A DNA stretch of 63,454 bases, filler included, from Hausera hauseri (Eukaryota): NCBI GenBank assembly GCA_046269625.1. It is 11 parts of 11 records of this genome, joined end to end, with 100 filler letters (N's around TTAATTAATTAA, not from the genome) between each part and the next. Parts side by side here need not be neighbours in the genome. Positions count along the whole stretch, not along the records: positions 55,032 to 59,130 come from JBJURY010763095.1; 10 more parts are not named here. The stretch is one strand, 5' to 3'. The notes under the pieces were generated by a model. That model saw only the letters and a list, made by a program, of their open reading frames with translations, searched no databases and was not told where the DNA came from. The translations under genes and the position numbers were made by a program. This document shows positions 21,507-63,454 of the stretch, one piece after another (position 1 is the first letter of the stretch; the number at the start of each line of letters is the position of its first letter).

Positions 21507-21569
21507 TTTCTTTTTTTCCCCAGTTTTCGTCGTGCAAATCGACTCATTGTAATTTCAATGGGTTCCATC

Positions 21570-23644: not shown

Positions 23645-23774
23645 CTGAAAAAGAAAATGTAAAGGTTAATCTTAAAACAAAGTATGGCTTTAAACCAAAA
23701 CCAATTCCTTGTTTGGTGACAGAATAACCTGATCTGTAGTTGTCAAGTTATTTTATCATACGGGTCCACTGGAT

Positions 23775-25140: not shown

Positions 25141-25199
25141 GCAATTATTGAGGAAGTTTTTATCTCGCATTGGCGTAGCTTGTAACGTTTATTGGGCCG

Positions 25200-41699: not shown

Positions 41700-42701
41700 G
41701 AGCTGACAAGAAACAGAGAATCCTTCAGAAGGGCTGTGATGAGGGCGACGTTCTGCAAAGGACAGGCCACATGATGTCATATTGTGGCATCATCTGTAAG
41801 TCAAACATTGGTAGACTTAGACAGGAAAGAGGCTGTTCAATAGGATAACAACCAGCATTTTCTGCTTTTAAAACCGTCTGACACGAAGTAAAAGCCAACC
41901 AGTGTTACCCGACTCTTTTCATAGAAGTTTCTCTTGTCTAGACTCTGGACTGGCCCAAATGATCCAAAAAGACACCTTTCCTCCTCTGGTCTATATTGGT
42001 CTTTTTATATTAGTCCTTTTGTGTACGACAGATGACTGGTATCGAGGTAAGATGCCCACCTCGGATGCTAGAGATCCGGGATTCAAATCCTGTTTTACTC
42101 ACTGGGGATCTTCTCTACTGTATTTTCATGATCTCTTAGATCGGACGTTCATGTACATTCTTATGTTCACTTCTTTCTTTCTTTCTTTCTTTCTTTTTCC
42201 AGCAAGATCGCATCATTTATTGATTATGCTCAGCTGCAATAAAAATGGTTTCACTAACGATAAGAATTCCGTAGTGTGGACTTGTCGACTGTATACTCCA
42301 CTTAACTTAATCAGAGTCTGCCCTGCAGGCGACAGAGTAATACCCTTCCCCAAGTCAACAGCATACAAGTCTATGGTGTACTAATCATGTATGGTGTCTT
42401 GTTCGCTCCTAGGAAATGTTAATAGATTTCTTATAAAAACAATTACGAGCTGTATAATGTGTTGTATTGTTGGTACACCATGTTTATTTCTTTCGGAATT
42501 CTGTCACTTCATCAATTTGTTTTGGAATATATTCATTCTTTTATTCCTAGGCAAGTAACTACAGATTATTCTTCTTCTGCACTTATTTATTATCATGCCG
42601 CTTTTCGTCTTCTGTGTCCGTTTATTATTTCCATTGCATTATAGCGTCTTTGCTTGTACGCGCGAACTTGTGCATGTGGATGTGCGTGCAATGCTGTTAC
42701 A
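41700..42701 (-). repeat. 3' LTR (U3 part, runs off the contig)
   Basis: Begins TGTAACA just after a polypurine tract at ~42704-42718. Confidence 0.7.
42029..42100 (+). other. tRNA-Pro-like sequence inside the LTR
   Basis: TGGTATCGAGGTAAGATGCCCACCTCGGATGCTAGAGATCCGGGATTCAAATCC resembles tRNA-Pro (TGGTCTAGGGGTATGATTCTCGCTTCGGGTGCGAGAGGTCCCGGGTTCAAATCC), with A- and B-box-like motifs. The acceptor stem is not intact. Confidence 0.55.
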
Positions 42702-43477
42702 CATCCCTCCTTTCCTTAAGGGAGACTTTTGCTTTGTCAAATGTCTACTAGAATGCTACTACTTCTCAAAAAGTCATAAAGTGTATAATACATAGCATAA
42801 TTGTAATACAATCATTTACAATATAATAATCATGTCAAGTATCATGTTTTTCAAACCCTACATTCCTGATTTCAAATATTCATTAACCTTTAATGCATTA
42901 AAAAGTTATTATCATTTTTAACACAATAAAGTGAATGCCCTATCAAAGTTACGTATCAACGCAATAAAACAAGTGTCATCTCAATGCGAAATACAGATAC
43001 TACAAGGTGCAATGTTTAGTCTGCATGCTCCAAATTTATAACATTGTTGTAATACCTAAACTCCAAAGATCACACTCATGAAACTTAATTATGGTAACTT
43101 ACAATTACAATCTCTAGTTACAAAAAAAATTCTTCAGAACATCATGATAACTGTTTATAGGTACATGAGATATGCATCCAAAGTAGATACAGTCGTTAAC
43201 CCTTCATTTAAGTAATTCACATCTCAAAATATCAAGATTATCTGTAACATAATTCATTACAAATTCAGTTAAAGGTGCACATAATAACATTATTATCGAT
43301 TAATTGTAACAACTTCTCATACAATAACTCATCAACAAAATAATTGAAAGCATGTCTAAAATACAACATCATAATTCCCTTTAATCATACACCCGGACAT
43401 ATATGCTTCATCTACCCTAATTGTCTGTGTCATGTGATGTTTTACAATTGCGTCTGTTGTTGTTGTTGTTGTACGGA

Positions 43478-45483
43478 TCAGGCTAGTTCTAAATTTGGAT
43501 ATAGCAATAATTTGCCTGATGGTTTTGTTTCTCGTTTTTGTTCATCTCTTACTACTGTTATGTTTGTGTTCTCGTAATTAACAGGTTTGACGGGTGTTTG
43601 TGTTTCTGTGTTCCTATCCTTTAATTCCATGTTTTTACTGTTTCTGGTAGCTTCGGCTGTTTTGTTCTCCATACATTTAATTATTTATGATGGTTTTTCT
43701 ATTCTTCGCTCCTACCAAGCCTAACACGATTATCACGACAATCGTTGATATCGTCATTCCCCCAAGTTACTTCTGGATCTTGTATTTACTTTGCTAATTT
43801 CCTGTATCTGGTTTAGTTCATTAATCAGATCGTTCATTTCAATCCGGTCTACGTTTTTCTACGGCTGTGGTAAATTCCTTAACACTAATGGTTTCAATTG
43901 TTTCTTCACTGGTTCCCAGATTTCCGAACCGATCCGTTTATTAATTACTTCCTTTAATTCTACTTTATCCTCCACATTAACGCTACTACTGAAAGTTCTA
44001 TACGAAGTTAACCTAAACCAATCAGTATGTGCAGTACATTCTGAATCCAATGTTATAATATCTAGCGGAGCTTGTAATTCTATATGTTGTGTTGTTACCT
44101 TATCCTCTTCTTCTCATAACTTTGTTACAGTTATGTTTCTTGAAGTTATTACTAACCATTTGTCTTCATGAATCTTTTCTAATTGTGGAATATCAGGTTT
44201 CAGTGTTATCTCAGCTCTACAGTCTTCTATTATATTCTCCGTCTTATCTAAAAATAATGTTAGTACTCAGAATCTTGCTCCGTTTACTATATATACTGGA
44301 TTCTCAAATTTGCAAAACCTATACGGTTGGTTTTCACATCTTTCTAATTCTTCCTGATTGACTAACGCAAATTGTGTTCTTTCCTTATTTATTCGAATGG
44401 TAGATTCTTCTACAATGTATCTTGCCATGGGTACCCTGTTTGTTTTCCCTACTAGATCTTCATTTATAGGTTTAAATAGGGGTTTAACTTTATAAACTTC
44501 GTATATATTCACATTATCCACTAAAGGTATATCTGTGACTGTGATGATCTGTCGTCTAAAACTGGTCGTATCTATTGATAACAACTTATAGTATACCCAT
44601 AGTTTTTCTTCTATGTCAGTTGGGAACTGTACGTTTGTAATTGGCACTTTTTGTAATCCCTCTAAGATGTTTTTCAATTCTGCTGGCATAAGTAGACTTG
44701 TCGTTAATTTCTTATTTATGGATACGTTTAGACTCGTCAGTAACTTCTCAATAGCATCCCTCACTTGATATATGAGTTCCCTACAATTGTCTGCTGTGAC
44801 TAAACTTATGAAAGAACGTTGCGTAAACTCCTCTAAGTCCCTTATTTCACCTTTTAACTGTGAATTCACCTGGTTGGAATAATCGACTATCTCCTGAATG
44901 AGTCTAAAAGCTCTGTTAATATGATCCATATTCTCGTGTACTTCTTTTCTTGTAATATTCAAAATAGAAATACTTCTCTCCATTACATGTTTCAATTTCC
45001 CTTGATTATCTGCAATTATTTTTATATCCTTTTTCATCCCTTCACCGTCAACTTCATTCGCTGTATCAAATAGAAATCCTAACACATCACCAATGTACGG
45101 TAGAACTGATCTTTTCCTTCTACCAGTATCTATTACAGTTTGGAATGTCTTATGTTCCTTGAGTAGGTAAAATTTCAATAACATAATCTCCTCTCTTAGT
45201 GTTTCTAGTGAATTAGCATAAGTACCATTGCCTCTTGCCTTGTAATTTTCTCAGTAACGTCTTGTAAGCGCATAGCTTGTCTGGTTGCATTCACTAATGC
45301 TTCCTCGTATGGCTGCATATCTGTCACAATGGTTAATTTCCAATGGGTTTTAATATCTGACCCTTCTTTCACTTTAATAAACACTGTATTATCTCTCACC
45401 AATATATGGTTTTTCTCCTTCTTGCCAAGAATGGTGGTGATATACATTATCGTCCACCATAGAATCCTTATTCGTCTCTTCAT
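43478..45483 (-). pseudogene. env: Envelope protein, baculovirus-F/errantivirus type (frameshifted)
   Basis: Signal MKRRIRILWWTIMYITTILG; furin site RRKR (45110-45121) followed by fusion peptide SVLPYIGDVLGFLFDTA; heptad region; TM MTISTIVVIIVLGLVG. A TACTAAC branch point at 45534-45540 lies upstream. Confidence 0.85.
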
Positions 45484-45543
45484 TTTTTCTTTGAAATTTG
45501 CGAAAAAAATGTATAGCCTAAGGTAATTCACCCGTTAGTATGG

Positions 45544-47035
45544 CTAATTCCTTTCTAACTTTTTCATAGCGTATTTGGTTAATACTGCGATGGTCGGGTC
45601 TTCGTCCTCTTCTATTGGCTTGCCCTTTTTACTTTTTTGTTTCTGTTTCTTCACTTCACAACTTTGCATTTCCCGTGTTCTTTCTGCGGTCTGCTTCTCA
45701 TTTTTCTTCGCTCTTAACTCCTTCTTCTCAATCTCTGGTTTTACTTTACTCTTTTTCTCTTCTCTCTGTGTTTCCTCTAATTTGACTTCCTCCTTTTTGG
45801 TTTGTTTCTTTTTTGTCCTCCCAACTGCCGCTTGAGGTTTCCGTTTTACCACTGGTTCGTCTTCACTCGAACTCTCTTCTGTGTAAGGTCTTTTTATTGC
45901 TTCTCTCATAGTTTCCTCCATTTCTTCTTCTCCCTCATCCTCGCTCGATACCATTGATGACGGTTCTCTCTGTATGTTTTGTCTGATTTCCTCATCCTCA
46001 CGCGCCACAGGTTTCTCTGCTCCTTCATGGTTGATTCTCTCATCTCTGTCTGCTAGTCTCATTTGTCTTTCCGGTATGGGCATATCACTTTCCTCTGAGG
46101 AATGTTCCCTCATTCTCCTAGCTCTCTCTAATTGTCTTTGTTTTGCTGCTTCAGTTCTTCGTCTAAGTGCTCCTCTGGTCTTTTGGAATGGTGCGTCCAT
46201 AAATTCTTCAGTTTCTCTAATTGATTCTTCCTCGTCTCCTACAGACTGTGTGTCCTTAGCGTCCTTGTGTTCCTTATATTTTCTCTCTCGCATCATTTGT
46301 TGGTAGGTTACTGGCGTATATCCTCCTACAGCTGATTCATCTTCAAAGTCTGACAATAAATCATCTTCGCTTTCGATATCTGATGCTTCCTCGTCTGTTG
46401 ATTCTGGTGTTACTGCATATTTCGTGTTCCTAAGTCTTTTATCTCCTTCTACCTTTTCTAATTCATCCCATCCTGTGTCATCCTTCCTCAATTCTGAAGT
46501 GGTTGCTTTAGCCTGGTGTCCACTCCAATAATTCTTTATCTCGTATGTAACTGGTCCTCTTTTCTCAATGATTATATACCCCTTTGTCCACTTATTGTTG
46601 AATTTGGAATCCTTGCCGTGTACTTTATACTATACTTTGTCGCCTACTTCAAATTCCTGTTGTTCTGAATTCTTGTTGCTTGATGCTTCCTTTTTATAAA
46701 TGCTTTCTTCAGACTCCCATGTACCCTCAAAAATGTCCTATGCATCTCCTGCAGCAAAATGTCATAGAAATCTTCTCCTAAGTACTTCCTATGCGGCTTC
46801 AGCAATAAATCTAGGGGAAGAATTGCTTCTCATCCATACAACAATTCGAATGGTGAATGTTTCATACTTCCATTCTCGTTCATTCTCAATGCTGCTAATG
46901 CTTGATTCAGATACAAGTTCCAGTTCCTCTGATTGTCTTCTACATATTTCGCTATGATGTCGTACATAGTTCTATGCTGTCTCTCATTTTTCCCGTTACT
47001 CTGTGGGTGGTAGAATGATGTCGTTATATGCGTAA
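45544..47035 (-). pseudogene. Integrase C-half with a long charged (E/K/R-rich) extension
   Basis: YHPQSNGKNER, FEVGDKV, KFNNKWTKGYIIIEKRGPVTYEI, then a 315-aa low-complexity tail. Confidence 0.8.
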
Positions 47036-47331
47036 GTCGTAAGTCAAATCACTTCAAACAACAATGATAATAATAATATCTCCAGAAGAAACTTCAGTTA
47101 CATAAACAATGCAAGTCATCAACAAAATATAACCACAAAGTCTAACTAAATATAAGTACATTCAACTAATCTCCTTGATGATCTTTGTTAGTTAAATTCG
47201 CGTCTCCAGTATTATCAGATAATTAACAATGTTCATATGACTTGGCGTGTCCTAAAGTGTTCTTAAAGTCGACCGCAAACGTAAACAGGACCTCAATTAC
47301 TCGTCGTGATGGTTGGTCCTTAATAATACAA

Positions 47332-48421
47332 TGTAACCCAGGTAATCTGGCACCTCGATACTGTCAGTAATAAAACACTTGAATTGATACACGAGTTTCA
47401 ATGTCTATCTCTAACTTTGACTGTTTATGTGTCTTTACTATTCAACCACATTGTCTGTGGGACTCAAGACTTAGTGCATGACATTGTTTCTTTACGGTAA
47501 CAACTGTTTAAAAGGTTCACGATATAACTACGTTGATCACTTTATTGTCTGTCTTTAAATGTTTCACTAAATCAGTACACGGCGTTCCACACTATCAGTG
47601 GGACTGTAACACTTCAGTGATTCACGATGTCTCTAGTCTATTAATTAGTCACTTGTTTCTCACAGTAGCCCTAGCCTCGAGCACAGTTACTCTACGACAC
47701 CGTTACACTGTCAATGAATAATCAATGGTTAAGTGTCTTAATCTCTACTTACAACAAGTTGCACTGTCGAATATGTCTGCTGACAATACACACGGGCTTC
47801 AACGATCAGCACCGGAGTCTAGATGTGGCTCCCTCTTCAGTGTTCAGCAAGGGTTGACAATGGCTCGGCTTTTCCACAGGATATCTGGCAGAGGATAGGG
47901 TATCTCTCGTACAGGCGACAAATAGAGAACTTTGCTATCCATAACGATGAATATAGCAGTCAACAAAGACTAAGCTCTGCTCAGTGCTTTGTTCTGTCCT
48001 CTGTATTATTAACTGTATTGCTTGACCCTAGCTCTTGGTGTGTCTGCTGGCTGACATTGTCTTCGTCTGTGAGGACGCGAATGAAAAGGCTCAAATGTCT
48101 CTCTACTCTGTCTGGAGTATATATAGTACCGTATCTAGTGTCCTTGGTCATCTACATTCTAGAAGTTTCTACGCACGTTGACATATGTACTTTTTCATGT
48201 AGCTCATGTCTAGGTCAGGGACAACATGTTTGTTAAATGTTTCTAGAATGTCTGAGAACCAAAGTTCCTTACTAATTTTAGTACCTATTCTGGAACATAC
48301 TGCCACATGATGCGCACTTCTAGAAAACAAACAACTTTGCCCTCAAACTGTCAGTTCTGATATCTACTGGGAACTTTTTCATTTAAACAGTGTCTTTCAA
48401 AACACACCCTCATGATTTTGT
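47332..48421 (-). repeat. Probable 5' LTR (TATA to U5 end)
   Basis: TATATATA near 48120 on the minus strand; ends ...GGGTTACA, an inverted match to TGTAAC. No overlap with the visible part of the 3' LTR, so identity could not be confirmed. Confidence 0.55.
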
Positions 48422-48521: not shown

Positions 48522-51500
48522 ATATTCTTTCCTATGTCTTCTTACATGACATGTGTCCTGCTAAATATGAATCATGTTCTGCCATTAGAACTTCAGTTTG
48601 TAATTTCTTTGGAATTACTATAAGTTTTCTTCATTTTCGTTTATAATACAAAATGTCTTCTTGGCCTCTATCGTTTAAGACACAATATTTGTGGTCATGC
48701 CAATGTAGGTGTTTCTTTAGCTGTCGTTCTATGGGCATTGTGTCTTCCTTAGCAAATTCTATAATCTGCTGGACAACTTTGTCTCCTTTCTCTTCGGTTA
48801 AATTTTAATGGCTCTATCCAACATTAAAGCGCGTTGGCGATCTACTAATTCTTTAAGCTGAGCTTTCTTCATCACCCTAGTGGCGCTCGTCTTACTCTTC
48901 AGTCTTGAGAGTGCGTCAGCATCTACATGTTTGTTCCCAAGCTTATACTGAAATTCAATATTATATCGAAAAATTTCTTCAATCCATCTGTTAAGTCTAC
49001 ATGTCGGATTGTTTGTTTATCCTTTTAAGGTCGTGACAGCCTTATGATCCATTATGATTACGATTTTCTGTCCATACAGGTAAACGTTAAAATGTCGAAG
49101 TGTTTCTTTAGCGGTTAAAGTTTCCAATTCTGTAAAAGAATAATTTTTCTCAGATTTTTCAAATGAGCGTATTCCATATGCAGTAGGATGTTCCAATTCT
49201 TCATCATCTCGTTTCTGAGCCAGATCGTATCCAATACCTTCTTTACTGGCGTCAGCCTTAATTATAAATGGTAAATTGAAGTCTGGGTACCGTAAAACTG
49301 GTTCGCTCCTTAAAATCGTTTTCATTTCATCGAAAGCCTTCTGTTTGACATCTGTCCATTTCCACTTGATTCCTTTTTTAAGGAGACGATACAAAGGCGC
49401 ATTTATTTTTGAGTTGTCTGGCACAGAGATGGCATAATATCCACATAAACCTAGCCAGTGTCTTAACTCTTTCTGATTTTGCGGTCCCATGCAATCTGAT
49501 ATCTTGTTTAACAACGATTTTTCTGGTTTTGATTCTCCTTCTCCAACTATATGGCCAAAGTAGGATACTGCATTTTGAGCCAATTTGAATTTCTTCGGGT
49601 TTAGTTTTATTTCTGCTTGCTCTAATCGCATTAACGTGTGTTCAATATCCCTTATATGTTCTTCCTCTGTCTATGACGCTATCATTACATCATCTATGTG
49701 TGCAAAAGCGTGATCTTGTCCAATTAACATTTTGTTCATCATTCTTGTAAAAATAGTTGGTCCGGTGGTAATTCCGAACCGCATAACATTAAACTCGTAA
49801 ACGCCATCATGCGTTTTCAATGCAGGTTTATAATGATCTTCGTCTTCGATTTTTACTTGCCAATATTCGGATTGCAAATCCAAAGTAGTAAACCATTTTG
49901 CCCCTGAGAGCCTGTCAAGAGCTTCTTTAGTTTGTCCTGTAGTCGATCCAAAATCGATGTTTCGTAGTGCCCTTCTTCTTAACCATGAGAATCGCTTTAA
50001 GCATTCGTACGACTTCCTTTGTTATCTAAGGTCTCAATGAATGAGGTTCAGGGTATCATTTTGGCATTTTCTGATCTTCTAAATCTATCTCTTCGTTTGG
50101 ACCGGGCTTCTTCTTAAGCAGAATAACCAGTTTTAAGGCCTTTGCTCTGCCGATATCCTCGACGTCCTTCTCAATAATCGTTTTATAGCGGCATAATAGT
50201 TCTTAGAATCGACAATAAGATTCAGACAGAAACTTAGTTTCGACATGAGGTGGGAATTCAGCATACTTGTAAGGCTTTTTGTCGATAGTAATAGATGATA
50301 CTTTATAGGTATCTCCTAAAGTAGTGTAAGCATGTAATCTGACAGGGGTCGGCGAATTATTCGCTATTCTGAGTGGCACACGACCGAGTGTACTCTTGTC
50401 AATACATTACTAAGTGTTATATTCGGATTTAACGTTTTCCTTTGTTCAAAATATACTGGTTTATCATCATCTTGTTGTATTTGAGAGTAAATTATTATCT
50501 CTGTTCTCGGTGGAATGTGTTCATCGACTGGAACCCACACTTTGAATTTCCCATATTTAGCAATTTTTATGCCTCTGTTTGTCCGAATTTCTATTAGCTT
50601 TCCCGTCTGTAAATCTGTTGCTACGTGTGGCAGCCTTTTTAGTAGGTCGCAGCCTAGAACTACATCATCAGTTAATTGTTCTGTAACTGCAAATTCTTGA
50701 TAGGAAAATTGTTCTACTATTTGAATTTCTAGGTTCCGCATGAACATCAGTTTCGACATTTGACCGAAACCTCCTGTGCTATTGGGGTCTTCCTTATACG
50801 TTGGAGACAGTTATTCTCTCAATGTTTGGGGAATTTAGTCGTTTTTGATGTAAGACATCTCAAAACTTGTGTCGATTAGGGTATAGACTTTCGAATCTTT
50901 GATAATGATCTTGGCGAAGGATCTTCCTTCTATTACCGTTCAGGAAAGGTTTGATGCATTCTTTGCGCGCTTAACTGCCGATACGTTGTGCCCATTAATT
51001 CCGATCTCTGGGGAACTTACTATATTTTCCGATAGTTGCCTTAATTCTCCATTTGGATATAATTCATTATTTTCAATGTTTGATTCTTCTGCTTCATGAA
51101 CACTGATTAATGGTTATCGGTTGTTAGTATGCGGTTCTATATTCCGGAAGGTTTGTAATCTTCGATTTTCCCACACAGGTGGTCTGGTCTCTATATTTTG
51201 AGGTTCTCTCGGAGAGTATAGGCTCCTAGGATCATCCATAGGCTGCAGATAGCGCACCTTCCGCAGGATCCTGTATCGCCTGTTTCCTTTATAAGGGTCT
51301 TAGAGGCCAACTGTTCTCTTGTAAATTTTCGTTTGATAAGAGCCCATTGATTGCTTGTCTCAGTCTTCGTAGACTGGGCAGACGGAGGTAACATGGTCCA
51401 CGGCGCCTTTATGATAGAATGTCTTATGTCTATATACTTTTAAGCGAACTTCTTCTTCTTTAGGCTCGTCATAATCTGAGTTATTTCTGCGTGTATTAAG

Positions 51501-54500
51501 TTTGGTGGGCTTCCGCTTATACAAGGACATAGGCCTCCCCTTTCGTTTACGATGATGGTAGCCGACATGACGTTCTACATCTGATTTCCATCAATTTTCT
51601 TCATAGACCTTTAAAAACTTTCCGAAAGGTGTGATGATTGCCGTCAATATGTTACACAATAATCCCGTCAATGTAAATATTTCATATCCGTTTATCAAAG
51701 CTTGGCCTACCACCTTAATTAGTTGTATCATAAAATATATCGCTAGAAATCCAGGTGCGGCTGGTCCAAAAATTAAAAATCCTACACAAATTTTGTAGAG
51801 TATTTCCTTATTTACTCGTTGGTAATGATTTACTCCGAGCAATGATTCCCATTTAACTTGATATCAAGTATCGTCTACTACTGAGGCCATAGCTCGATTC
51901 AATCCGTGCGTTCGTTGTCGTGGGAAAACCAGAAATCGTCTAAAGCTTCAGTTTCCTTTGGTCTATAAATTCCTTTTGATGAGGTATCCTGGAATTTATC
52001 ATCCATGATTTATTTCACGAAATGAGTTCCCGTTAACTTAATTGGAGCGCAGTAATACCTCCGTTTGGCAAACTTACCCAATCTGTTTCGCTACGTCTAA
52101 ACATCGGTTCTCCTAAGCTTGCCATACAATCTTTAAAGATTGTTGGCTGAGTTGCTTTACCTAACAATACTCTGATAAGTAGCATGGCTAACCGGGGAAT
52201 GTTTTGGTATATAACCGGAAGTTCTTGGATACACCGTTTTTCTTCGACATTGATCGATGCATCACTTTTTTCACATTCGTAAGTCAATAAAACCTTACCG
52301 GTTACTCGACCAAAAATTCCTTCTCTCATAGGAATTATTGATGATGCTAACTCAGGATTAGCACAAATGAGAGCTAGTTTTGTTCTCATAATTTCCATGT
52401 CTAGCTTACAATCGTTTGGCTATTCCAACTTGTCCCTTGTAGTAAAAGTAATCGTCTCGATTTTTCAAGTAATCTTCAATACGAATATCCTGTGTTTCGA
52501 GTTGATAAGTCATTGCATTTATTTCCATTTCTGCGACGAAAAATGCTTCATTATTAGTGGCAAACATCGCAACCTCGCACCGTGAAATTATTTCCTTTTT
52601 AATAAATTTTAGCCCATGGGTATCGAAATCAGTATCGTGGGTGTAAAATGCTCTGCCACGTCTTCGCGCGTTCTTGAGTTACTGTCGAATTTATCCACAT
52701 ACCGCTTCCCGGTGGTTTCATTAAATTTTAGTTACTTAATTTTGATAAAATTACAGTTTATTCCAGAGGGACGTTCCCATATTATAACAGAACTTCTAAA
52801 AGCACACGTTCTGTCTTGTAAGTAGCATTTTTGATTTTCGGTATACAGTTTAGTCACACTGTGAAACATCACTTTCTGTACCCGAATTTCTGATTTATAG
52901 AAATCTACGACTATTACGTTCGATTCTACTCCCTTCACGGTGTCGTACTCTTCTCCATTACAGTGCCCTTTGTGCATATCTAGCTTCCCAGCTACTACTT
53001 TATAGGATCTAATTATCTTTGCTGGTTGCATTTCCAGTTCCATACTATCCCATTTTAATTTTCCTGTTTCTTTCACCAGTTTACAGTGTTGACGTTCTAA
53101 GTTCATTGGAATTAAGGGTGTCGTCGGTTTAATTATCGACGAATGCCCGTGCATTAATCCGCAGTGAAAAATGCTACGTGACCGCCCTAACATACATTCC
53201 ATCCCATCCGGTGATATTAATTCTTGTTGCTGGTATAGGAAGTAACTTTTCTCTTTTGTTTCTAGTCTGGCGTCAAAATCCATTAAGGAGTATTTCTGTC
53301 CGAGTTTGAATCTATCGCAATCATAGACCGTAACTGCACCCATCTGTTTTATCAACATCATCAATGTTAGAAAGCTAATTGACTAATTCGATTCGCTTCT
53401 TCGGTTACTGTTATCCGTTGCCATCAGGTTCCGTAGCATGTCTTCGAGTCGGCTACTATTATTGGATCCTTTATCTTCTTCCTTCTAGAACAATTTTTAC
53501 CAGCGTACTTCTTGGGGCAATTTCCTAGCCGCTCTTCGTGCCAAACTTGTAGCTCTATTAAATTCATTTTCTCAACCGGGATTCGTTTACATAGCTAAGC
53601 ACAGTAGTAATTTTCTTAGGTCTTCTATTGTGTTCTCCACCATAATTTTTTCGATCACCGTTTCATCGGTTAGATTACCTTTTTATAACCTTAAACGAGA
53701 ATTTCTCGTCATTCTAGCTGCATTAAATGTCGCTCTCTCTTTTTCGTCTAATACGTCACCATGGAGGTTTGAGTAATTTACGATGCGTATTAGATTTTTC
53801 ATTAACTTATTTAATTCGTCGTTGCCTGTGGTAAAATTAGGAATAGACATCTGTCTTAATTCTCTAATCAGTTCTCCGTTATAGTCAACGTCTTCTTTAA
53901 TTTTCCTGGGTCTGCCTACCGGACGTCTCTGTTTCGGAACAGTTATTGTCATTATACTCCGTGGCACTAAATTCTTGTCATATTGTTCCTTGTCTTCCTT
54001 CGTTTGTAAATATTCGAAATATATTGCGTAGTCTCTGACACCCATGATTTGTCCTACGTATTGTTCTTTCTTGGCCTTACGCGTGGTTTCTTCTTTCGTT
54101 CGTCGTTGGTTATTATTGCCATTATTCGGTTTACCTCATCAGGTGTAATCCCAACGTCTGCTGGCTGCTCTATATCGTCCAGTATTCTACCTCTGAAGTA
54201 GAATCTATAGTTCAATTTATTTGTTCCGCCACTGTTATTTACCCATTCTCTTGCGTACCTTACATAGGAATAGGTGGTCAACGCGCATTCTTTTACCTCC
54301 ATCCACTCAGATGATATCCTTAGTTTTATCGACATCTCGGGTTTAATTTTTAAGATTTTAGCGTATACCTTAATCAAAGGTTTCTGCACCGCGCTGTAGA
54401 TTGTGTTCTCACTAGATAGTTTGGTTAAATTCGGAATAAGCTGTCTTAACTTATTTTCCGTAATATTCACGTTAATTAATTTAATTAAATCCTTTTCGGT

Positions 54501-54931
54501 TAGCGCTGAATCCAGAAGCATCTCCACGTTGAATCTCCCATTCTGTAGGCATATTTTCGGCTCGTTTAGCCGTACTGGAGTCATTGGTGGGGTCATGGGA
54601 TTTTCATCAGTTATCGCATCTAAGTAAGCATCCAATTCTGGTTCATTTCCAACTTCTGGAAGTTCATAGTCTACTAATTCTGTACTCGTTCTCTGTACGT
54701 TTTCTCGGATCTCTTTTAGTCTCGGTGGTATTTCTTTTATTTGTGTGGTATGGAAACCTATTCCGTTTCCACAGGCATATTGAACCAATTTCAGTAGTTC
54801 GGCTAGTTCGTTAGAAGAAATGAGTTCCTTTTGATGGTAATCGGTCAGTTCAGTAATTACCTCTCTTTGTCATCTTTGTACGAATTCTCGCTTATTATTA
54901 ATTTGCGACTCGGTAAAAGCGTATCTTTTTC
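48522..54931 (-). mobile_element. Chuvirus-G Gypsy element copy E (UBL - AT-hook - G - PR - RT - RH - IN start), degenerate
   Basis: NYRFYFRGRILD; RRPVGRPRK; G from 53334 to ~51620; LIDTS; DLQSEYWQV; HIDD; YPDFNLPFIIKADAS; HDSYLAGH. Confidence 0.92.
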
Positions 54932-55031: not shown

Positions 55032-55507
55032 CGCATTCCAACCTTGCTCTTGTCATTAAAAATGATCTTATTCCAATCATCTTGAATCCACAATTGATAA
55101 ATATTGGCCAAAATCTTACGTTGACGAATGTGATTCTCTGTTAGCAAAGGTTTGCTTTGTGCACGGTACACTCTTCTTCCACATTCATTTAGTCTTCTTT
55201 GAATCGTCCTAGTTGACATTGATTTTCCAGAGTCACCAGGCTCACCTTTCAAATCAACAGAAGTTAGTTTTGTGTCTTTATTACTCTTCATCCTGAGCAA
55301 ATCGACACTATACTCCGACAATTTCCTCTTTCGCCCACAACGACCTTTTCTTTATGACAGACATAAACCTGATTCCCTAAACTTTCTTGCCAATTTGTAT
55401 ACTTCACTCTGTGAAACACAAACTTTACCTGCTATCTGACGTTTGGAATACGCACCAGTTTCAATTAGGGCTTTTATTTCACCCCTTTTCACCAATTCAA
55501 TATCCAT
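55032..55507 (-). mobile_element. Tc1 transposase N-terminal remnant
   Basis: Paired-like HTH (SKRQIAGKVCVSQSEV), RTIQRRLNECG, KPLLT, WNKIIFNDKSK (corresponds to W..V.FSDES). Confidence 0.88.
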
Positions 55508-55618
55508 TGCAATGCAAAAACAGCTAAAAATTTACGCAAATAATGGCAAACAAAATACACGTATGATTCATTCCATGATGCAGCAAAACAATTAATTAAA
55601 TTTAAATTCATACAGTTC

Positions 55619-56311
55619 TGTTGTCGCTGCAAGCAAACCTAAATACAACTTTTAGGGTAGGTGTCTTGCGTTTGTGTTTCAAATTCACAAACCAAATTCT
55701 GAGGGTTATCTTTCAAATGTTGTTGATTAAGTTGTTCTTTTCTAATTGCTTCTCTAGCAAAGAAAAACTCAAGTCGCTCTTTGATAACGAAATTCAAATA
55801 TGAGATTAGAATGAAGATATGATTGAAATATGTGGTTAAATTATTCAAGTATTTCACAATTATCATAAAATTCCTTCTACAAATTATGTGTAAATGTTAG
55901 TGATTTATGTGTAGAATAGAAATGGTTTAATTTCCTCAGACTTTCTGTGAGTCTGGGATAACAATATTACTTTAAACAAGTGAAAAACAATTAACACAAA
56001 ATTATATTAAACTTTCTAACGAATAAAAATATACTTACAGTTTTTTTTTCTTAAAATCAATTATCACCCAAGAGGTTCATAAAACAATAATATAACCAAA
56101 GCACTGATTATAGAAATAAAACTTTGTAATTTGTGTTGTGTCCTAGCACATTTTTCGTTTCAGTATTTATATAAAAGTCTGGTCTAATTATGGGCACAAA
56201 TTCGGGTAGGAGAAATTTTACTCTGACAACCCTAATAAATCAGACCTAATCAATCAATTCTGATATTTTTAGATTTATCAGACAATTGTCTGATTTCAGC
56301 ATTTATCAACA
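55619..56311 (-). repeat. Complete 3' LTR (693 bp), apparently inserted upstream of the Tc1 ORF
   Basis: PPT AAGGGTAGGGGAA (56312-56324); TGTTG...CAACA terminal inverted repeat; TATATAAATA near 56170. Confidence 0.8.
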
Positions 56312-56611
56312 TTCCCCTACCCTTAAAACGGAATGTATATATAAAAAAGGAAAGTGAACTAAAGAAATAATATTTACACTAAATAAAGTAAATAGATTGA
56401 TATTGAAAATACAATAAAAACAAGAAGAATGACGAAGGTGTAACATGCAGATGAAAGAAAATTAGTGAGTGTTACAAATACAAAATAAAATAAAATGAAG
56501 AATATACAATGTATACAGGATGTAGTCAAAAATCAGATTAATGTTAGTTCATAATATTAATGTCTGTAATCATTTGTATCAGTAAAATTTTGGATTGATC
56601 TGGTTCTGAAC

Positions 56612-58717
56612 TTATCCATCCAAATCGACACTTTCCTGGTTGATTCTAGTATCTATCAGATCTTCGTCTTCTGGTTGTAATCCTGGTCTAATACGTTCGA
56701 TAGGTATGAGTGTTGGTTGCGTTTGTTTTAGCAGTAATAAGTATTTGATCTGTCCATTGAAAAATTGTTCTGTTACCGAGTCAATCGTATTTGATACAAT
56801 TAATTTAATTCGCAATTTGGTGCTGAGCTGTACTCCGAAATTTACGGGTAGCTTCAGTACCACCGTGGGTTTCTGATATGGTATTAGAAAGTATTGGTTA
56901 TCTGGTCTTTGATATATGGCGCCAATGAAATTATTTCTCTCGGAATTCCATTTTGAAAGTCGTCTAAATGTAATGGTCTTTTTGAAAAAATAGGGTCTGT
57001 CAATGTGATGTATTGGAATTGGCAGAGTCAGATGATTCTTTTTCAATAATATACCGAAATTGAATGCTATTTTTTCTACATTGATTAAACACCTTTCTAT
57101 TTGTTGGGCCAATTTATCTGAATTTGATAACATGGTTTGAGTCATTATATCTTTGGTTTGCGGTGGATGTGTCCACAATCCCAATTCTAGATCTTCATCG
57201 TTACTTTCGGCTGCCAATATCTGCTGAATATCTCTGTTATCCACGATATCCTCTGATTGTTCTGACTCTGGATCTTCTAGAGATATGTTGTCAGGAGTAT
57301 TAAGCTCCATATCTATATCAATTTGTTCATTGGTATCGTTCTTTCTATTACCATTAACCAAACAGACATCAATTTTATGTATCCATCCGAAGTTTTCTAG
57401 ATATTTCTCTCTTCTATAAAATAGTTCACCAACGTCTATTATGTTTTCTTGTGGATTGTCTGGTGTCCAATTCACTTGTCTTGGTTCCGTGATGGTATGT
57501 ATAATATCCATGGTTAGTTCAAATTTTCCATCTGTGTCTTGGTTATAAAGTTGACCCTTACGAAATTTTGGTAGTTTCAATTCCTTTGCGACATTAATGA
57601 TATCTATGGTAGTAAAAGTAACTCCTGTTACTTCGGGATGCTTCAAAATATCTACCACTCCAGCCAGGTAATTTGGGTGAATGTCAAATATTTGTATCAT
57701 TCTATGGGTATCAATACCCATTACTATGGTGCCGAACAGCCATTGTGTTAGTTCTTTTGAGACTTCAAAAACATCAATTCCTCTTGATTGCAGAATCTGG
57801 AAATCGATTCCATGTCGGCCAGTATTACAGTTATGAACTCTTTCTCTATTTACCACGAACGCTCGATATAAAGTCTTTCCCTTCAAGTCTGAGATAACCA
57901 CTTCTAACGGCATAGGAGATCCATCCACTCGGTAACCCAACGATACAGTTAATATCCTAATGGTATTTGATTGATTGGTTTGTAGATAATTAAGTTTTGA
58001 GTCCATTATAATTTCTGGCGGTGTCTGAGCTAGCACCATCGGACGTGGCATAGATAGGTGCTTTTCAGGTAAAAGCCACTCAATCATAAGTATTAGTGGT
58101 ATTCTGTTTGGTCTGAACTGAAGTAAATTTGCGCTCATAGGAGTGTTTATGGCTAACGTTTCCTCCTCAAAGAGGGTTGCTATATTGGACATACTATACT
58201 GAGAACTTCTTGATGTTTTTATGACAAGGGTACCTCTTGCCATATGCAATATGAGGCCATCAATGGAGGGACATTCGGTTATGTATTCTTCTAGTGATCG
58301 CTGATGCGATTCCGCAATGGTGATAATTTTTATATGTCTGGTAACGGTTGGTCCATATTTCAATGAATTGGGGATCTGGGTTACATGATGGAAGAACTGC
58401 TCTGGATATACTGCCGCTTCTCTTCTGATATGATTGTAAAAAGTTCTGGACATAGTTTTGGTGAATGACGAACTTTTCGATGCATATTGTGACAATAACT
58501 GTTCTATTGAGAGAGTGTCCGCATGAAACAATGGGAACAAACTGGTGAATCTGTTTTGGTGATGGATTTGCGTCATATCTTTTTTGTTTCTGATTATTCG
58601 GTATCTGTCTTTGAAATTAACTTTGTTTTGTAATCGTGTTGGAAAAAGAGATGAATAAAAATTTTTTTCAAATAAATACTCACTTTGTTGTGTGTGTGTG
58701 TACCGCATGGTAACCAA
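56612..58717 (-). CDS. 701-aa retroelement accessory protein with a central DEDDh (REX4/ISG20-like) exonuclease-like domain
   Basis: Uninterrupted ORF ending ~290 bp upstream of the PPT. LEVVISDLKGKTLYRAFV...NCNTGRHGI...DVFEVSKELTQWLFGTIVMG follows the REX4 fold pattern (RVSIVN..G..LYD.FV.P...DYRT..SGI...F..V..EV...L.GRILVGH). Confidence 0.65.
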   Translation of the reverse strand: MVTMRYTHTQQSEYLFEKNFYSSLFPTRLQNKVNFKDRYRIIRNKKDMTQIHHQNRFTSLFPLFHADTLSIEQLLSQYASKSSSFTKTMSRTFYNHIRREAAVYPEQFFHHVTQIPNSLKYGPTVTRHIKIITIAESHQRSLEEYITECPSIDGLILHMARGTLVIKTSRSSQYSMSNIATLFEEETLAINTPMSANLLQFRPNRIPLILMIEWLLPEKHLSMPRPMVLAQTPPEIIMDSKLNYLQTNQSNTIRILTVSLGYRVDGSPMPLEVVISDLKGKTLYRAFVVNRERVHNCNTGRHGIDFQILQSRGIDVFEVSKELTQWLFGTIVMGIDTHRMIQIFDIHPNYLAGVVDILKHPEVTGVTFTTIDIINVAKELKLPKFRKGQLYNQDTDGKFELTMDIIHTITEPRQVNWTPDNPQENIIDVGELFYRREKYLENFGWIHKIDVCLVNGNRKNDTNEQIDIDMELNTPDNISLEDPESEQSEDIVDNRDIQQILAAESNDEDLELGLWTHPPQTKDIMTQTMLSNSDKLAQQIERCLINVEKIAFNFGILLKKNHLTLPIPIHHIDRPYFFKKTITFRRLSKWNSERNNFIGAIYQRPDNQYFLIPYQKPTVVLKLPVNFGVQLSTKLRIKLIVSNTIDSVTEQFFNGQIKYLLLLKQTQPTLIPIERIRPGLQPEDEDLIDTRINQESVDLDG

Positions 58718-59118
58718 ACAATTAATAAAGATGTGATGATTGGACTTAGTGTGCGAGGCGCATATGTGTGAATGCTAGATGGCGATGACATCAGCTGTGG
58801 CTGGTCACGCGATTTTAGAGGGCAGTAGCACGTGCTAGTGCTAGTAAGAATTTGTCTGTAAATTTTTGGAGTCAGCAAGGTACCTAGAGTCAACACTATC
58901 AACAACAAAACACTTAGAATAATGATTAATATGGCACACACAGTTATGCTTAATTCTGTAACTTCTAGACTTTTCTTAGACACTGAGTCATTTCTGACGT
59001 CATTTTGATTGTAATTAAACTTTACTACATTATTTATTTTTGGCAACGTTCTGATATGAGTTTCAAAATAATGTGTACAATTTTTAATTATTACTAGATA
59101 TTCAGTGTCTGACGTCAA
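58594..59118 (-). CDS. C-terminal part of an accessory membrane protein
   Basis: TM ITVCAILIIILSVLLLIVLTLGTLL, in the same position as the membrane ORFs at 23775 and 60521. Confidence 0.6.
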   Translation of the reverse strand: MTSDTEYLVIIKNCTHYFETHIRTLPKINNVVKFNYNQNDVRNDSVSKKSLEVTELSITVCAILIIILSVLLLIVLTLGTLLTPKIYRQILTSTSTCYCPLKSRDQPQLMSSPSSIHTYAPRTLSPIITSLLIVWLPCGTHTHNKVSIYLKKIFIHLFFQHDYKTKLISKTDTE

Positions 59119-59234
59119 TCTGGTACAATANNNNNNNNNNNNNNNNNNNNNNNNNNNNNNNNNNNNNNNNNNNNTTAATTAATTAANNNNNNNNNNNNNN
59201 NNNNNNNNNNNNNNNNNNNNNNNNNNNNNNTTTA

Positions 59235-60340
59235 CTAATTGGCTGGAAGTGAACGAAAAATTGTTTTTCCTGAGGGAGCTCTGTATCCGAGTCCGTCAGG
59301 TTTGAAGATCTCGCCGTCTATTAATACCTCTTCTTCTATTTCGATCTTTCTTCTTTTTGATGATGCTTCTGGTGGTCTTTTTAGGACCTTGTCGGAGGCC
59401 GTCGTTTCATTTATTACTTCATCGTCCCATCGCAAAGTGTTATATAAGGCATGGTGGCATTGTACCAATGCCATACTGCGGAGTGGCATACCTTTCATTT
59501 CATAGAAGTTCTTTGCCAACTCCTTATAGGTCATCGTCTCTAATCTATACTTCCGAATCACCTCTTCGTGGTAAAGCACATCAAGAACTCCGATGATTCG
59601 TCGTAACGGACAGAGGTATTTTCGTAACATCTCCAGCACCCCGACTTCAACGACCATCTTGTCATTTAAGATCGCTGAAATCTGGTAAAATAGATTGGCA
59701 TCCATTTGATTGTTAATACTGCTCTCGGTGAGCCCCATAATATGGGAATCAAAATTATTAATTCTCTGTCTTGGAGTTATCATAGCATAAAATAAGGTGT
59801 CTCCTTTGAAACTTATCACTGAGCATTCCAACGGAGTTAATTGGTTATTCTGGTCGTATGCTAGGTTGACTAGGCGTTGTCCAGATTAATTCCGCCTTTA
59901 ACAACTCGATTCCTATCATAATCCTATTAGTCAGTGTGCGGATTTTGAGGATACTTCTTTTGACCAGATCGAATTGAATCGTTATTCCATGATTTGGGTA
60001 TAAATTGATTAGATCCCCTTGTTGATTTGTCTTAATATCTTTCATTTTTATTTGAAACTTTCCAGTAATATCATAAACATTGAGGCTATAGAATTTGTCC
60101 AGGAAACTAATCAAATCCTGAAGAGGGAACGAAGTATCCTTCGTTATCTGGACTAATGCTAGCGACCGATTTCCCATGGAATACCCCTTGAAATTATTGG
60201 GTATTTGCTGAACCATAGGGTAGTTGATAATGTACGTATTATAATTGACTACTATATGATACTAATTGGATGAATTGGCATTGATCAAATGGCTTTTGGC
60301 ATTTTCATACCAATTTTTACTGCGTTGCACGGCTTAAATA
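59235..60340 (-). pseudogene. Accessory ORF: IPNNxK domain plus DEDDh-exonuclease-like domain
   Basis: QQIPNNFKG...; LECSVISFKGDTLFYAMITPRQRINNFDSHIMGLT...ILNDKMVV...IIGVLDVLYH. Confidence 0.65.
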
Positions 60341-60520
60341 TCTATTAATGCAAAAATCAAAGTCATGTATATATCACAAAATCTTAAATATAATAAAACG
60401 GTTATCATATACTTAACTTTGGTAATCGTTATTTTAATTCTGTTTGTATAAAAGGTAACTGTGACGCTCAGTTATCGTGTTAATTCGGATTGCGTTGACA
60501 TCAATCCGGGGAAACCATCG

Positions 60521-61812
60521 TCAGCTTGGATTGGCAGTATTCAAGATGTTTGCTATGCGTCGAATATCTATCTTCGCCAAATTGGTTCTGCGACGCTTTC
60601 GTACGTAGGGGACTAATTTCATGGTAAGTGATATACCTATGGCTATTATTATAGGAGGCATGGTACATATTAGTATTATTTCCAATTTTGAATAAGTGTA
60701 TGTTGTATGTGACAGTCTTAAAGCTGTCGTTGGTCCGGCAGTAGCTTTTCTATAGAGTAATTTTATTTCCATTTCATTTCTGATCAATGCTGTTAATATT
60801 TTGGTGGATAAGACTGTACTATTATCGTCATATAGTTGCAACAAAATCATATATTTGGTATTAGGGGTCAATGCTGCACAAGGCACGATTAAGTCATCCG
60901 GTGTTATAACTCCTTTTGCAACTACCGTGTCTCGTATTTTACATGCAAATTTTACTTTAAAGATGTCAAGGTATTTGTGACATTTTCCCATATGGAACGC
61001 TTCTGCCGGTAATATGATACGCATGGCATAATTAGAACAGTCATCTCCCTTTCATTACTTTTATTAATCAGCAAGGAGTGCACAGATGATGCCGTAACAT
61101 TCTTTAGTTCATCATATTCAACTTTATTTCGATATCGCAGGTACATGGTTGGTCCTTTTCTTTTTATACATCTTACCTCTAGTTTCGTTGCACATCAGTT
61201 ATCTGACATTTCTGAGTTTTTTTGCGATTTTGCGCTTTTTTAACGGATATTGTTATCCAACGAGTGTTTTTTAATTCTATCGTGCTCGAAATTGCAATAC
61301 AGCTTCTTCTACTTTTGAATACTATTGATTTTGCTGAGAGTTGGATATTTATTATCTCATCCAACAATTTTTTATTCATCTCATGTCTAGTAGGAATACG
61401 GATGTGTTTAATAAATTAGGTGTACTGGCTCTTATAGCAGGCTCCTTTTTATGAGGGTTAAGTACACACCATGAGGGCCTGAACCACTCACTAAACATTG
61501 GGTTTCATTTACACAAGCGTGGAGTATGCAGTTATAGCGGCGTTCATTAGGGTTTCTTTTATCATCGTCCCAAGGTATTATCTGTATTCCTATCATATAT
61601 TCAATAGGTATCCGTCGGGCTGTATGCCAGATTATACCTTTTTTACCGTTAATGGTGTACGTTACTCGGTATCGTAGACCTTTCAGCAACAAACCTCCAT
61701 TTATTGCCATTGCGTGTCGTATTTTAGCTTTCTCAATCTCTTTGTCAATTGGCTTAAGACTGGGCAATAATATAAAAAACATCAATACGACATAATTTTT
61801 TATTTTAACCAA
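60521..61812 (-). pseudogene. Accessory type-I membrane protein (frameshifted)
   Basis: Signal-like NYVVLMFFILLPSLKP after integrase; TM IILICTMPPIIIAIGISL followed by RKRRR. Confidence 0.6.
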
Positions 61813-62049
61813 TTTGTGTTGACCTTTCTTTTACCTCTTTCTTCACCTCTCACCGTCTTTTCCCTAACCCTTCTTACTGTTTCCGGTTCATCTTGTCTAA
61901 GCTTGCTTTCTTTAGCTGCTGGTTTACATATATTAACGTCGACTTTAAAAATAACATTATTTTAAATAGATATTTGGTTAGTCCACCTTTTCCACTTCAT
62001 ATGGTCCTTTATATGGTCTATCTAATTTGGATGTTCTGCCTTTCTTGCC

Positions 62050-63454
62050 CAACTTTGTATATAGCATCATTTTGTCTCCTATCTTAATTTTTGGCTGTTT
62101 AGTTTTTTCATCGTAATATTTCTTATATCTTGTTTTAGTCTTTCTGGTTATTCTTTATTACTTTGTACGCTAATTGTAAACGTTATTTCATTAATTGTTT
62201 GTATTCTTTCACCCCATTAAATGCAATGTGGGTCGCACATTGAAGTTCAAATCAATTGGTAATCTGGCATCTCTTAGATACATCATGCAGAAACATGTCT
62301 CTTTAGTGGCCTCATGTACTGATGTCCGATTCACAAAGACACTGTTTGTAGTTTCTCCTTCAGATCTCCTATGTACCTCTCAACCATTCCGTTATTTTAT
62401 GGATGTCCCCGTGTTGACCGTAATTTTAATGTCCTCATCATATCGTAAATTGCTTGCATTACATTTCCTGTTAAGTTTGAGGTTTGATCAGTAAGTAATA
62501 TTCTACGAGCTCCGTAGTTAAATAGGATACTTTCCACGAATTTTTTAGCGATTGTTTCTGCTTTCATATTGTGCATTGGAAACGCGACGACCTATCGAAT
62601 AAAATAGTGGATAAAGACTAATATATATTTATTTCCGTTTGTCAATGTTAACGGTCCCGTTATATCCATTGTAGTAAATTCAAATGGGGAAGGTGAATTA
62701 TCCTATACTTTCAAAGGAGCTTTAAATTTGAATCCTGTATTCTTTCGTATGACAGAGTTTGCAACTGTCACCAATCTTGGACATCCCTTGTTATAGTTGA
62801 CCAGAAATATTTCCTTTTTAGTTTGTTTATCGTTTTTTTCATTGACTGATGTCCACCTAATAACCCATCATGATATTGGGTCAATAATACTGCTCTATTC
62901 TTTTTTGGAATTACTAGGGCGGGTCCGTTTGGATGAATATAATATAAAAATCCATCTTTCTCTTCATAAGCGCCACTAAATCTGGTTAAATGGCGAGCTA
63001 ATTCTGTATCCCTTGGTATAACATTATTCTGTATATAATTTCTAATGGCTTTTATTTCCTCATCCTCGTTGATTTTCTATTGTCTTCTCTGTAGATCCGT
63101 CCATACTCCATACATATGCGATTACGTCTTTTTTCCGTTGATTCTTGCGGCATTCTTGATAAATAATGCGCATTCACATTTCATGTACCAGGTTTGTATT
63201 GAAAGTCTAGCTTATAAGGTTGAAATTTTAAAGCCCATCGTAGTAGTCTACGGTTGGGGTTTTCATGTTTCTTCAGCCACTGCAATGGTCGATGGTCTGT
63301 ATAAATTACCAACGGTTTATTCTCACTAATATAAGGTGAGAATACTTCTAGTGCAAATATTACCGCTAGCAGCTCCTTTTCAATAACGGCATACTTCTTT
63401 TGATGCTTATTTAACTTTATCGACGCGTAAGCAACTGGATGTTCTTTACTATCT
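62050..63454 (-). pseudogene. Gypsy RNase H and integrase remnants
   Basis: Motifs as listed for the 59231-63454 element; many stops and deletions. Confidence 0.8.

Follow-up and report, generated by a model that had tools for sequence, protein, structure and literature searches.

How do the transposable elements of animals counter the small-RNA silencing directed at them by their hosts? The question is a long-standing one, and element-encoded antagonists are best documented in plants (VANC). It is raised here by a gene carried in a 63,454-nucleotide stretch of DNA from Hausera hauseri, presumably an invertebrate animal (assembly GCA_046269625.1), referred to as the window, in which 11 contigs of 4-12 kb each are joined end to end with N-spacers and do not form one locus. 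The window contigs hold mostly decayed long terminal repeat (LTR) retrotransposons, and the gene in question lies at the 3' end of complex Ty3/gypsy elements as an accessory gene. As predicted by modelling, its product is a beta-helix domain of AlkB/2-oxoglutarate (2OG)-oxygenase-like type, without a metal site, fused to a REX4/ISG20-like DEDDh exonuclease domain. By analogy, this double pseudo-enzyme probably binds RNA or host proteins, and perhaps shields the element from host defence. Several features of the exonuclease part had been proposed in a preliminary description made from the sequence alone, and what became of them is stated below.

Three diverged copies of one accessory gene

The window contains three homologues of the accessory gene, designated A, B and C, each in its own Ty3/gypsy element and each on its own contig:

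56612-58708, minus strand: copy C, an intact 698-residue accessory gene encoding a predicted AlkB-like double-stranded beta-helix (DSBH) domain, a dead DEDDh domain, an acidic linker and a C-terminal region
58061-58498, minus strand: copy C residues 71-216, predicted DSBH domain of 2OG-Fe(II)-oxygenase/AlkB type in which HxD, the distal His and RxxxxxR are all absent
58358-58378, minus strand: QIPNSLK motif, copy C residues 111-117, the best-conserved stretch of the N-terminal domain
57464-57964, minus strand: copy C residues 249-415, REX4/ISG20-like DEDDh fold, from profile, catalytic columns and predicted structure
56615-57118, minus strand: copy C residues 531-698, C-terminal region, with no Pfam match and no significant match to relatives
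59235-60417, minus strand: copy B, a broken homologue with a dead ExoI site, its N-domain (59869-60342) and its exonuclease part (59307-59870) being in different frames
21054-23680, minus strand: copy A, a homologue that is broken and comprises an N-domain, a dead exonuclease, a long middle region and, at the C-terminus, a RING finger (~21369-21494)

The reading frame of copy C extends over 720 codons from stop to stop, against a longest frame of 169 in 1000 shuffles. It had been described as an uninterrupted copy of 701 residues; uninterrupted it is, and the first ATG at 58708 gives 698 residues, 701 being the count from a TTG. A possible short intron in the start of the open reading frame (ORF; 58605-58683, minus strand, with a GTGAGT donor at 58683 and a T-rich stretch ending in CAG) makes the true N-terminus of copy C uncertain.

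The preliminary description had recognized three highly diverged homologous ORFs sharing an (Q/N)IPN(N/S)xK motif and an exonuclease-like block, and this relationship holds. A tblastn search of the window with copy C returns only B (E 5e-8) and A (E 8e-8), the next best match having E 3.1, and the family profile described below finds exactly three copies over all six frames. Few shuffled sequences reach the observed alignment scores: 0 of 2000 for the exonuclease parts of C and B, 1 of 2000 for the N-terminal parts of C and A, 5 of 2000 for those of C and B, and 10 of 2000 for the exonuclease parts of B and A. The motif reads QIPNSLK in C, QIPNNFK in B and NIPNNLK in A. Matches of copy B to an intact 447-residue relative, P0002, have 49% and 59% identity, and copy A is collinear with an intact 870-residue relative, P0003. 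P0003 thereby shows that gene A ends with the RING ORF. The homologue placed earlier at 21570-23644 is real, and its gene extends through that ORF to 21054.

The position of the gene was also correctly perceived. Each copy is preceded by an ORF with a transmembrane segment, which in A and B follows the integrase; a polypurine tract (PPT)-like sequence followed by TG is visible 3' of A and C only, the stop of gene B lying 4 nt from its contig end. This position, after the integrase or membrane ORF and before the PPT, bears out a 3' accessory gene of gypsy elements, and a retroelement context is established for the three window copies only. The treatment of 55619-63454 as one region has to be abandoned, since copies B and C lie on separate contigs across an N-spacer and are not neighbours. 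The pol of element B is only 29-43% identical in amino acid sequence to that of the A family, and the accessory cassette is therefore present in two gypsy lineages.

An exonuclease fold without its catalytic residues

Is the conserved block an exonuclease, and could it still be active? The earlier assignment to a REX4/ISG20-like DEDDh fold, with a fold check set beforehand for residues ~250-410, is upheld. Compared with the PDB, the family profile matches ISG20L2 (E 7.6e-31), ISG20 (E 1.9e-18) and SDN1 (E 2.4e-16); Pfam RNase_T is matched by 19 of 50 family members, and RNase_T clusters are Atlas leads at 0.90. An AlphaFold model of copy C residues 71-450, built on an alignment that took in catalytically intact relatives, has a predicted local distance difference test (pLDDT) value of 84.6 and a predicted template modelling (pTM) score of 0.82. 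It matches ISG20 with Z 17.0 and a root-mean-square deviation (rmsd) of 2.4 over 157 residues, the next row having Z 14.0, and a Foldseek search with it returns ISG20L2 at E 4.5e-7. Exuperantia is a further fold match of the model (Z 10.5). Maelstrom and arenavirus NP are absent among the best 50 matches listed in the wide fold search, and arenavirus NP is an Atlas lead at 0.88.

None of the five catalytic residues is kept in copy C, where T254, S256, M337, Q390 and K395 occupy the five positions. As had been noticed, the ExoI D-x-E is replaced, by T254-V-S256 in C (TVSLG) and A-V-N in A (AVNYG), with N at the E position in B, and the ExoIII motif (H-x4-D, the GH...D of the preliminary description) is altered to Q390/K395 in C and L/L in B; this register comes from the profile alignment and was scored for C and B. 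The ExoII Asp, which corresponds to the catalytic residue D94 of ISG20 (PMC6805002), is M337 in C, M in B and I in A. The D327A position of the ISG20L2 structure coincides with the ExoIII column of the family alignment, and all 17 hand-picked REX4-like controls have D-E-D-H-D at the five columns.

If its active site had switched, in the way described for Maelstrom, the protein would still be an enzyme. Acidic residues of copy C (D333, D391, D393 and E397) do lie near the old site, and the ExoIII register is taken from a profile alignment at a place where model confidence falls (block means 69-89). However, both ExoI acids are gone from a high-confidence strand, and no alternative Cys/His/acidic tetrad is conserved across the 25 catalytically dead members of the family; as to an ECHC zinc tetrad, no Cys, nor any His of the exonuclease domain, reaches 60% conservation among them. 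We consider such a switch very improbable.

A predicted AlkB-like domain that carries the IPN motif

The preliminary description had listed the IPN motif together with the exonuclease block as common to the ORFs. Both are present, and the IPNxLK motif lies outside the nuclease, within a separate AlkB-like N-terminal domain of ~145 residues. Over 59 rows its P is conserved in 95%, its N in 83% and its K in 69%; other conserved features of the domain are an Arg, the His of an LHIxxG motif and the terminal Glu of the last strand (80%). The median identity of the domain across the family is 17%. At the sequence level it has no Pfam or PDB match, and a Pfam N-terminal model is found in 0 of 50 members.

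Modelled alone, the N-domain has a pLDDT of 87.4 and matches ALKBH6 (Z 10.3, rmsd 5.2, 146 residues aligned), Ofd2 (Z 10.1, 3.2, 134), the viral prolyl hydroxylase vCPH (Z 10.0, 3.3, 130), ALKBH7 (Z 9.9, 3.2, 137) and a cupin (Z 9.9, 2.7, 94). Chains of the AlkB or prolyl 4-hydroxylase type (Z 9.2-10.3) cover 130-146 of its 152 residues, compared with ~90-95 for simple cupins (Z up to 9.9), and its flanking helix and strands are covered by the 2OG-oxygenase type only, not by cupins. In a viral library the fold matches include ampelo-, viti- and foveavirus polyproteins, named 2OG/AlkB proteins and poxvirus EFc proteins, the best being an unnamed protein at E 4.6e-5. From a published account of such domains (PMC544882), the plant-virus polyprotein matches would be to their AlkB domains.

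AlkB/2OG enzymes are defined by HxD...H iron ligands (PMC544882). In wide windows set from the strand order of the model and the topology of AlkB, any H-x-D/E occurs in 3 of 57 rows, a distal His in 10 and both in 1, scattered, and copy C has neither; the RxxxxxR 2OG/substrate motif occurs in 1 of 57 rows. The model therewith describes the N-domain as an AlkB-like fold without a metal site.

A family of intact and dead two-domain proteins

A profile of five window pieces, compared with 1.84 billion representative proteins at E <= 0.001, finds 116 proteins, of which 57 span both the N-terminal region and the exonuclease, making 58 rows with copy C. The rest (fragments, cellular REX4-like proteins, multi-repeat proteins and apparent chance matches) are excluded from the counts. 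Members of this 58-member family are diverged at the 50% level. When a profile is built from 46 relatives, with no window sequence in it and with the three closest relatives left out, copy C still reaches 122.8 bits and the pieces of A and B reach 32.6-75.9 bits, whereas no shuffle (198 reported of 200) exceeds 5.8 bits; these 46 relatives were originally found using window sequences. Narrower searches return little: copy C alone matches 0 Pfam families and, by phmmer, has one chance match in the PDB, and a scan of bacterial and archaeal genomes, which reaches close relatives only, confirms 0 of 31 pattern matches. A word-indexed protein search with copy C is blank (0 of 3774 candidates), and since the same search with the G protein is likewise blank (0 of 7995), its blanks say little.

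Across the 58 rows the five catalytic columns read DEDHD in 11 and DEEHD in 16. None of the residues is kept in 22 rows, a single one in 2 rows and two in 1 row; the other 6 rows are incomplete. The site is therefore intact (DEDDh/DEEDh) in 27 of 58 and lost in 25 of 58, with no row keeping three or four residues, and all 27 intact members carry the His of the DEDDh type. The altered exonuclease of the preliminary description is thus a true feature of the window copies, which are dead; what it missed is the AlkB-like N-terminal domain, the intact site in nearly half of the family and the RING fusion of A and P0003. Among the 25 dead members the fold-core residues (IPN, PR, G, D and GIRD) are 72-100% conserved, and the median exonuclease identity is ~21%, compared with 36% among active members.

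Two further sets of proteins were observed beside this family. Three close dead-type relatives (P0055, P0118 and P0119) each lie on one sequence of near-equal size (4547, 4545 and 4533 nt); these sources may be transcripts, element fragments or a small virus genome segment. P0016, P0021, P0030 and P0080 form a separate group of 730-800 residues. These proteins have hydrophobic N-termini and no DSBH domain, and most of their four REX4-like domains, arranged in tandem, are catalytically altered.

Inherited loss of catalysis

When was catalysis lost? The intact relatives P0002, P0003 and P0004 carry A-x-N at ExoI, as does copy A, and copy B has the same N. Since intact relatives of A and B share this replacement, the loss is inherited and older than the decay of these copies. 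In a quick exonuclease tree, which includes the catalytic columns and has long branches, all 26 dead rows lie beyond one branch (Shimodaira-Hasegawa-like approximate likelihood-ratio support 89), and the REX4-like rows form one starred group beside the active members with the dead rows on the far side. This topology would fit the acquisition of a REX4-like nuclease whose catalysis was lost afterwards, with the rooting resting on the REX4-like outgroup; long branches may, in turn, falsely group the dead rows. In the N-domain tree the dead rows are nested among the active ones, with 9 changes, and no starred branch forces more than one. Judged from these trees, catalysis may have been lost once or several times.

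A gene that has lost its catalysis could be a functionless relic of a once-active exonuclease, carried along by its elements, and the broken state of copies A and B and the long branches of the dead members are both as expected of one. A and B, however, have decayed as a whole, their pol and env genes being broken too, and the 25 dead members have open frames with cores conserved beyond the divergence that a neutral gene would survive. We find a relic improbable. The dead protein instead appears to be maintained, judging from the 698-codon frame and from a fold core kept at the low identity given above.

The 3' cassette and its elements

Which genes accompany the accessory gene? The features adjoining the three copies are as follows:

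55619-56311, minus strand: putative 3' LTR of element C (TGTTG...CAACA), its end chosen among three CAACA candidates, the single LTR on the contig
56312-56324, minus strand: PPT of element C, from the sequence
58594-59130, minus strand: 3' part of the element C membrane ORF, cut by the contig edge and overlapping gene C at its start, in a different frame
60521-61830, minus strand: broken membrane ORF of element B, immediately after the integrase
61981-63454, minus strand: RNase H and integrase remnants of element B, a distinct gypsy lineage
19847-19858, minus strand: PPT of element A, then TG (the LTR start, cut by the contig edge), 1.2 kb past the RING stop
23775-25150, minus strand: broken membrane ORF of element A, with a signal-like start after the integrase and a transmembrane segment near the end
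25187-31560, minus strand: upstream genes of element A, all decayed: Monjiviricetes/chuvirus-type fusion glycoprotein, protease, reverse transcriptase, RNase H and integrase

The three membrane ORFs are weakly alike (8, 27 and 188 of 2000 shuffles reach the scores) and have no match in Pfam, nor in the PDB with a three-sequence profile. They look like type I membrane proteins in the usual env position, whereas the true fusogen precedes pol. By eye they contain L-x-x-x-x-x-Y-x-V/I stretches that bring fibronectin type III (FN3) repeats to mind. A membrane ORF start also follows the integrase in the sister element at 4476-9312 (ORF 8820-9312).

The element A glycoprotein matches Pfam Monjiviricetes_fusion at E 3.9e-18 (29598-30122), and on a sister contig the glycoprotein match has E 3e-41, with the protease next. 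Five contigs (4476-9312, 15610-19622, 19723-31560, 36257-41599 and 48522-54931) form one Burro-like family, 64-75% identical in nucleotides over the main matches, in which a chuvirus/mononegavirus-type glycoprotein directly precedes protease and pol; on one sister contig the glycoprotein is preceded by a ubiquitin-like match, a weak one (E 0.09). By eye, the glycoprotein of this family resembles a Schmidtea errantivirus env.

Other contents of the window lie apart from the cassette. A different gypsy element at 41700-48421 (minus strand) has an ORF resembling an F-type env after the integrase (~43500-45480, with a furin-like RRKR site, by eye), a PPT near 42705 and, by the family profile in six frames, no accessory gene. 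A decayed protein-primed DNA polymerase B (9413-15509; Pfam DNA_pol_B_2, E 6e-10) is Polinton/adintovirus-like and of higher GC content, an F-BAR (FCH) fragment at 2593-3804 resembles a host gene, and a Tc1/mariner transposase remnant at 55034-55531 flanks element C.

The C-terminal region of copy C does not align to the tails of its relatives beyond chance (67, 1143 and 1238 of 2000 shuffles reach the scores; tail profile <3 bits). The C-termini of ~17 relatives, P0002 among them (11.8 bits; shuffle maximum 4.1), have in common a short beta-hairpin-like motif, whose profile scores B and C at <3 bits; a likeness in B (59238-59330) is seen by eye via P0002. A RING finger is found at the end of copy A and of its intact relative P0003.

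Just before gene A, at 23636-23664 (minus strand), the sole GTRAGT donor of the 11.8-kb contig lies 4 nt past a strong splice acceptor (23645), and the two may bound a micro-exon. Relative P0004 has the same FFFRLVS read-through as the gene A acceptor site, which suggests that this signal may be conserved. Several other relatives begin, by eye, with F/L/I-rich residues ending in Q or FR before Met, like translated acceptors.

These signals bear on the possibility that the dead protein performs housekeeping rather than defence, binding the element's own genomic RNA for export, translation control or packaging in the manner of Rev or CERV. The 3' location is that of complex-retrovirus regulatory genes, an acceptor as strong as that before gene A occurs only ~0.09 times per 300 nt, and Cer1 CERV, made from a spliced mRNA, has this role (PMC10309623). 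The same filter, however, finds no such acceptor before B or C; a nuclease site, present in half of the family, is needless for an export factor; and the extreme divergence of the N-domain suits a conflict with the host. Housekeeping of this kind seems to us rather unlikely, and a role against host defence is preferred.

Comparison with known systems

No fusion of an AlkB-like domain with an exonuclease was found in the literature within the scope of our search, which lay outside Repbase entries, subscription journals and figure-only annotations. What appears to be new is the two-domain architecture; exonuclease ORFs and AlkB ORFs of LTR elements are already known separately. The Juno and Vesta LTR retrotransposons and the Terminons of bdelloid rotifers carry an intact DEDDy/DEED exonuclease as ORF3 (PMC5408684). 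Like the present gene, this is a captured DnaQ-like 3'-5' exonuclease forming an extra ORF of an LTR element; the DEED variant known from the rotifers is also that of 16 of the 27 intact members here; and it lies downstream of pol and before the 3' LTR, as A lies after the integrase and before the PPT, B after the integrase and C before the PPT. The rotifer proteins, compared here by their description and not by sequence, differ in being RNase D-like, DEDDy and intact, with no DSBH domain reported, whereas the present family is of the REX4/ISG20-like DEDDh type, has an AlkB-like domain joined to the nuclease and is represented in the window by dead copies.

Ty3/gypsy elements of Phalaenopsis contain an AlkB (2-oxoglutarate-dependent dioxygenase) ORF (PMC9289625), likewise a 2OG-oxygenase fold as an extra gypsy ORF. 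The orchid protein is a recent, active N6-methyladenosine demethylase close to plant ALKBH, whereas the fold of the present N-domain is barely recognizable, has no metal ligands and is joined to an exonuclease. The cellular exoribonucleases ISG20, ISG20L2, REX4 and SDN1 share the fold and sequence profile of copy C; it differs from them in keeping none of the five catalytic residues, in its extra N-terminal domain and in its mobile-element context.

A GAG-ENV-POL order is known in planarian Burro elements (PMC6431247) and in errantiviruses of nematodes, bryozoans and flatworms (PMC13524379). In Burro/GYPSM1 and these errantiviruses, as in element A, a glycoprotein of mononegavirus/chuvirus type stands immediately ahead of protease and pol; this comparison rests on element A, elements B and C being truncated at contig ends. 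Unlike element A, Burro elements have no exonuclease or AlkB ORF in the lists of the available text (PMC6431247). In the errantivirus paper, as far as its accessible material extends, the word exonuclease is not in the text, nor are exonuclease, AlkB and DEDD in 6 of 7 supplements (PMC13524379).

The DEDD fold is also used by a parasite or kept without catalysis in arenavirus NP, Maelstrom, EXD1 and Exuperantia (PMC7968707, PMC5408684), and KolobokD DNA transposons carry a DEDDh exonuclease (PMC9587614). The zinc-finger/ECHC tetrad of Maelstrom and arenavirus ExoN is not conserved here, the nearest relatives being REX4/ISG20, and none of these proteins, KolobokD included, is reported with a DSBH domain in the text available. 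The arenavirus NP and coronavirus nsp14 named in the preliminary description are analogies only, as the nearest structures are cellular ISG20 and ISG20L2.

What the protein may do

Functions of such proteins are known from several sources. Suppression of innate signalling is a property of the arenavirus ExoN (PMC7968707). RNA binding persists in the DEDD derivatives Maelstrom and EXD1, which are inactive (PMC5408684), and the orchid gypsy AlkB binds RNA and has been proposed to counter host surveillance (PMC9289625). On these analogies, a REX4-like exonuclease would have been taken up by an ancestral element and fused there to an AlkB-like domain that is not catalytic and serves as an RNA-recognition module. 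Active forms would trim or destroy element-derived RNA that triggers host RNA surveillance, like arenavirus NP. Dead forms, such as the window copies, would be two-domain binders that shield the ends of element RNA or tie up host surveillance factors, and the RING form (copy A and P0003) would add ubiquitin-mediated removal of the bound host factor. We hypothesize, at somewhat less than an even chance, that active members clear surveillance-triggering element RNA and that dead members shield RNA or sequester host factors. The RNA binding and the RNAi/piRNA suppression suggested in the preliminary description are likewise conjectural.

Several observations weigh against this reading. Cupins tie with the AlkB-type fold matches of the N-domain to within 1 Z unit, and hhalign of the N-domain with a single E. 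coli AlkB sequence gives a probability of 0.2%, with no link to AlkB found at the sequence level. The greater divergence of dead than of active exonucleases also fits relaxed selection. The RING is present in only 1 of 50 aligned family members. Copy C is near charge-neutral (K+R 15 vs D+E 12 in the N-domain, 19 vs 19 in the exonuclease), and its domains therefore have no obvious basic RNA-binding surface at the sequence level.

The last point would suit a protein that has lost RNA binding and acts as an adaptor, its pseudo-enzyme domains binding a host restriction factor and recruiting, or with a RING being, a ubiquitin ligase. The RING fusion of A and P0003 agrees with this, as do the poxvirus EFc-family proteins and vaccinia C16 N-terminal domains among the N-domain fold matches, which are non-catalytic immune antagonists. 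The rarity of the RING speaks against it, and so does the conservation in dead members of the loop beside the RNA site (PR...G...D). Burro elements, on the other side, have many ubiquitin- and apoptosis-related domains (PMC6431247). We judge a protein-only adaptor unlikely.

A wider reading, offered tentatively and held to be doubtful, is that the 58 members represent a widespread, undescribed accessory family of animal retroelements in which a dead AlkB-like reader is joined to a REX4-like nuclease that has switched from nuclease to binder more than once. The protein would be an antagonist of PIWI-interacting RNA, RNA interference or RNA-modification surveillance, within a complex-retrovirus-like 3' cassette of surface protein, RNA antagonist and RING ligase in invertebrate gypsy viruses. 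Within the family, a single compact protein of two domains, modelled with confidence, exists in nature in both active and dead forms, and the accessory genes that invertebrate gypsy elements can bear make up sets no less elaborate than a complex retrovirus has.

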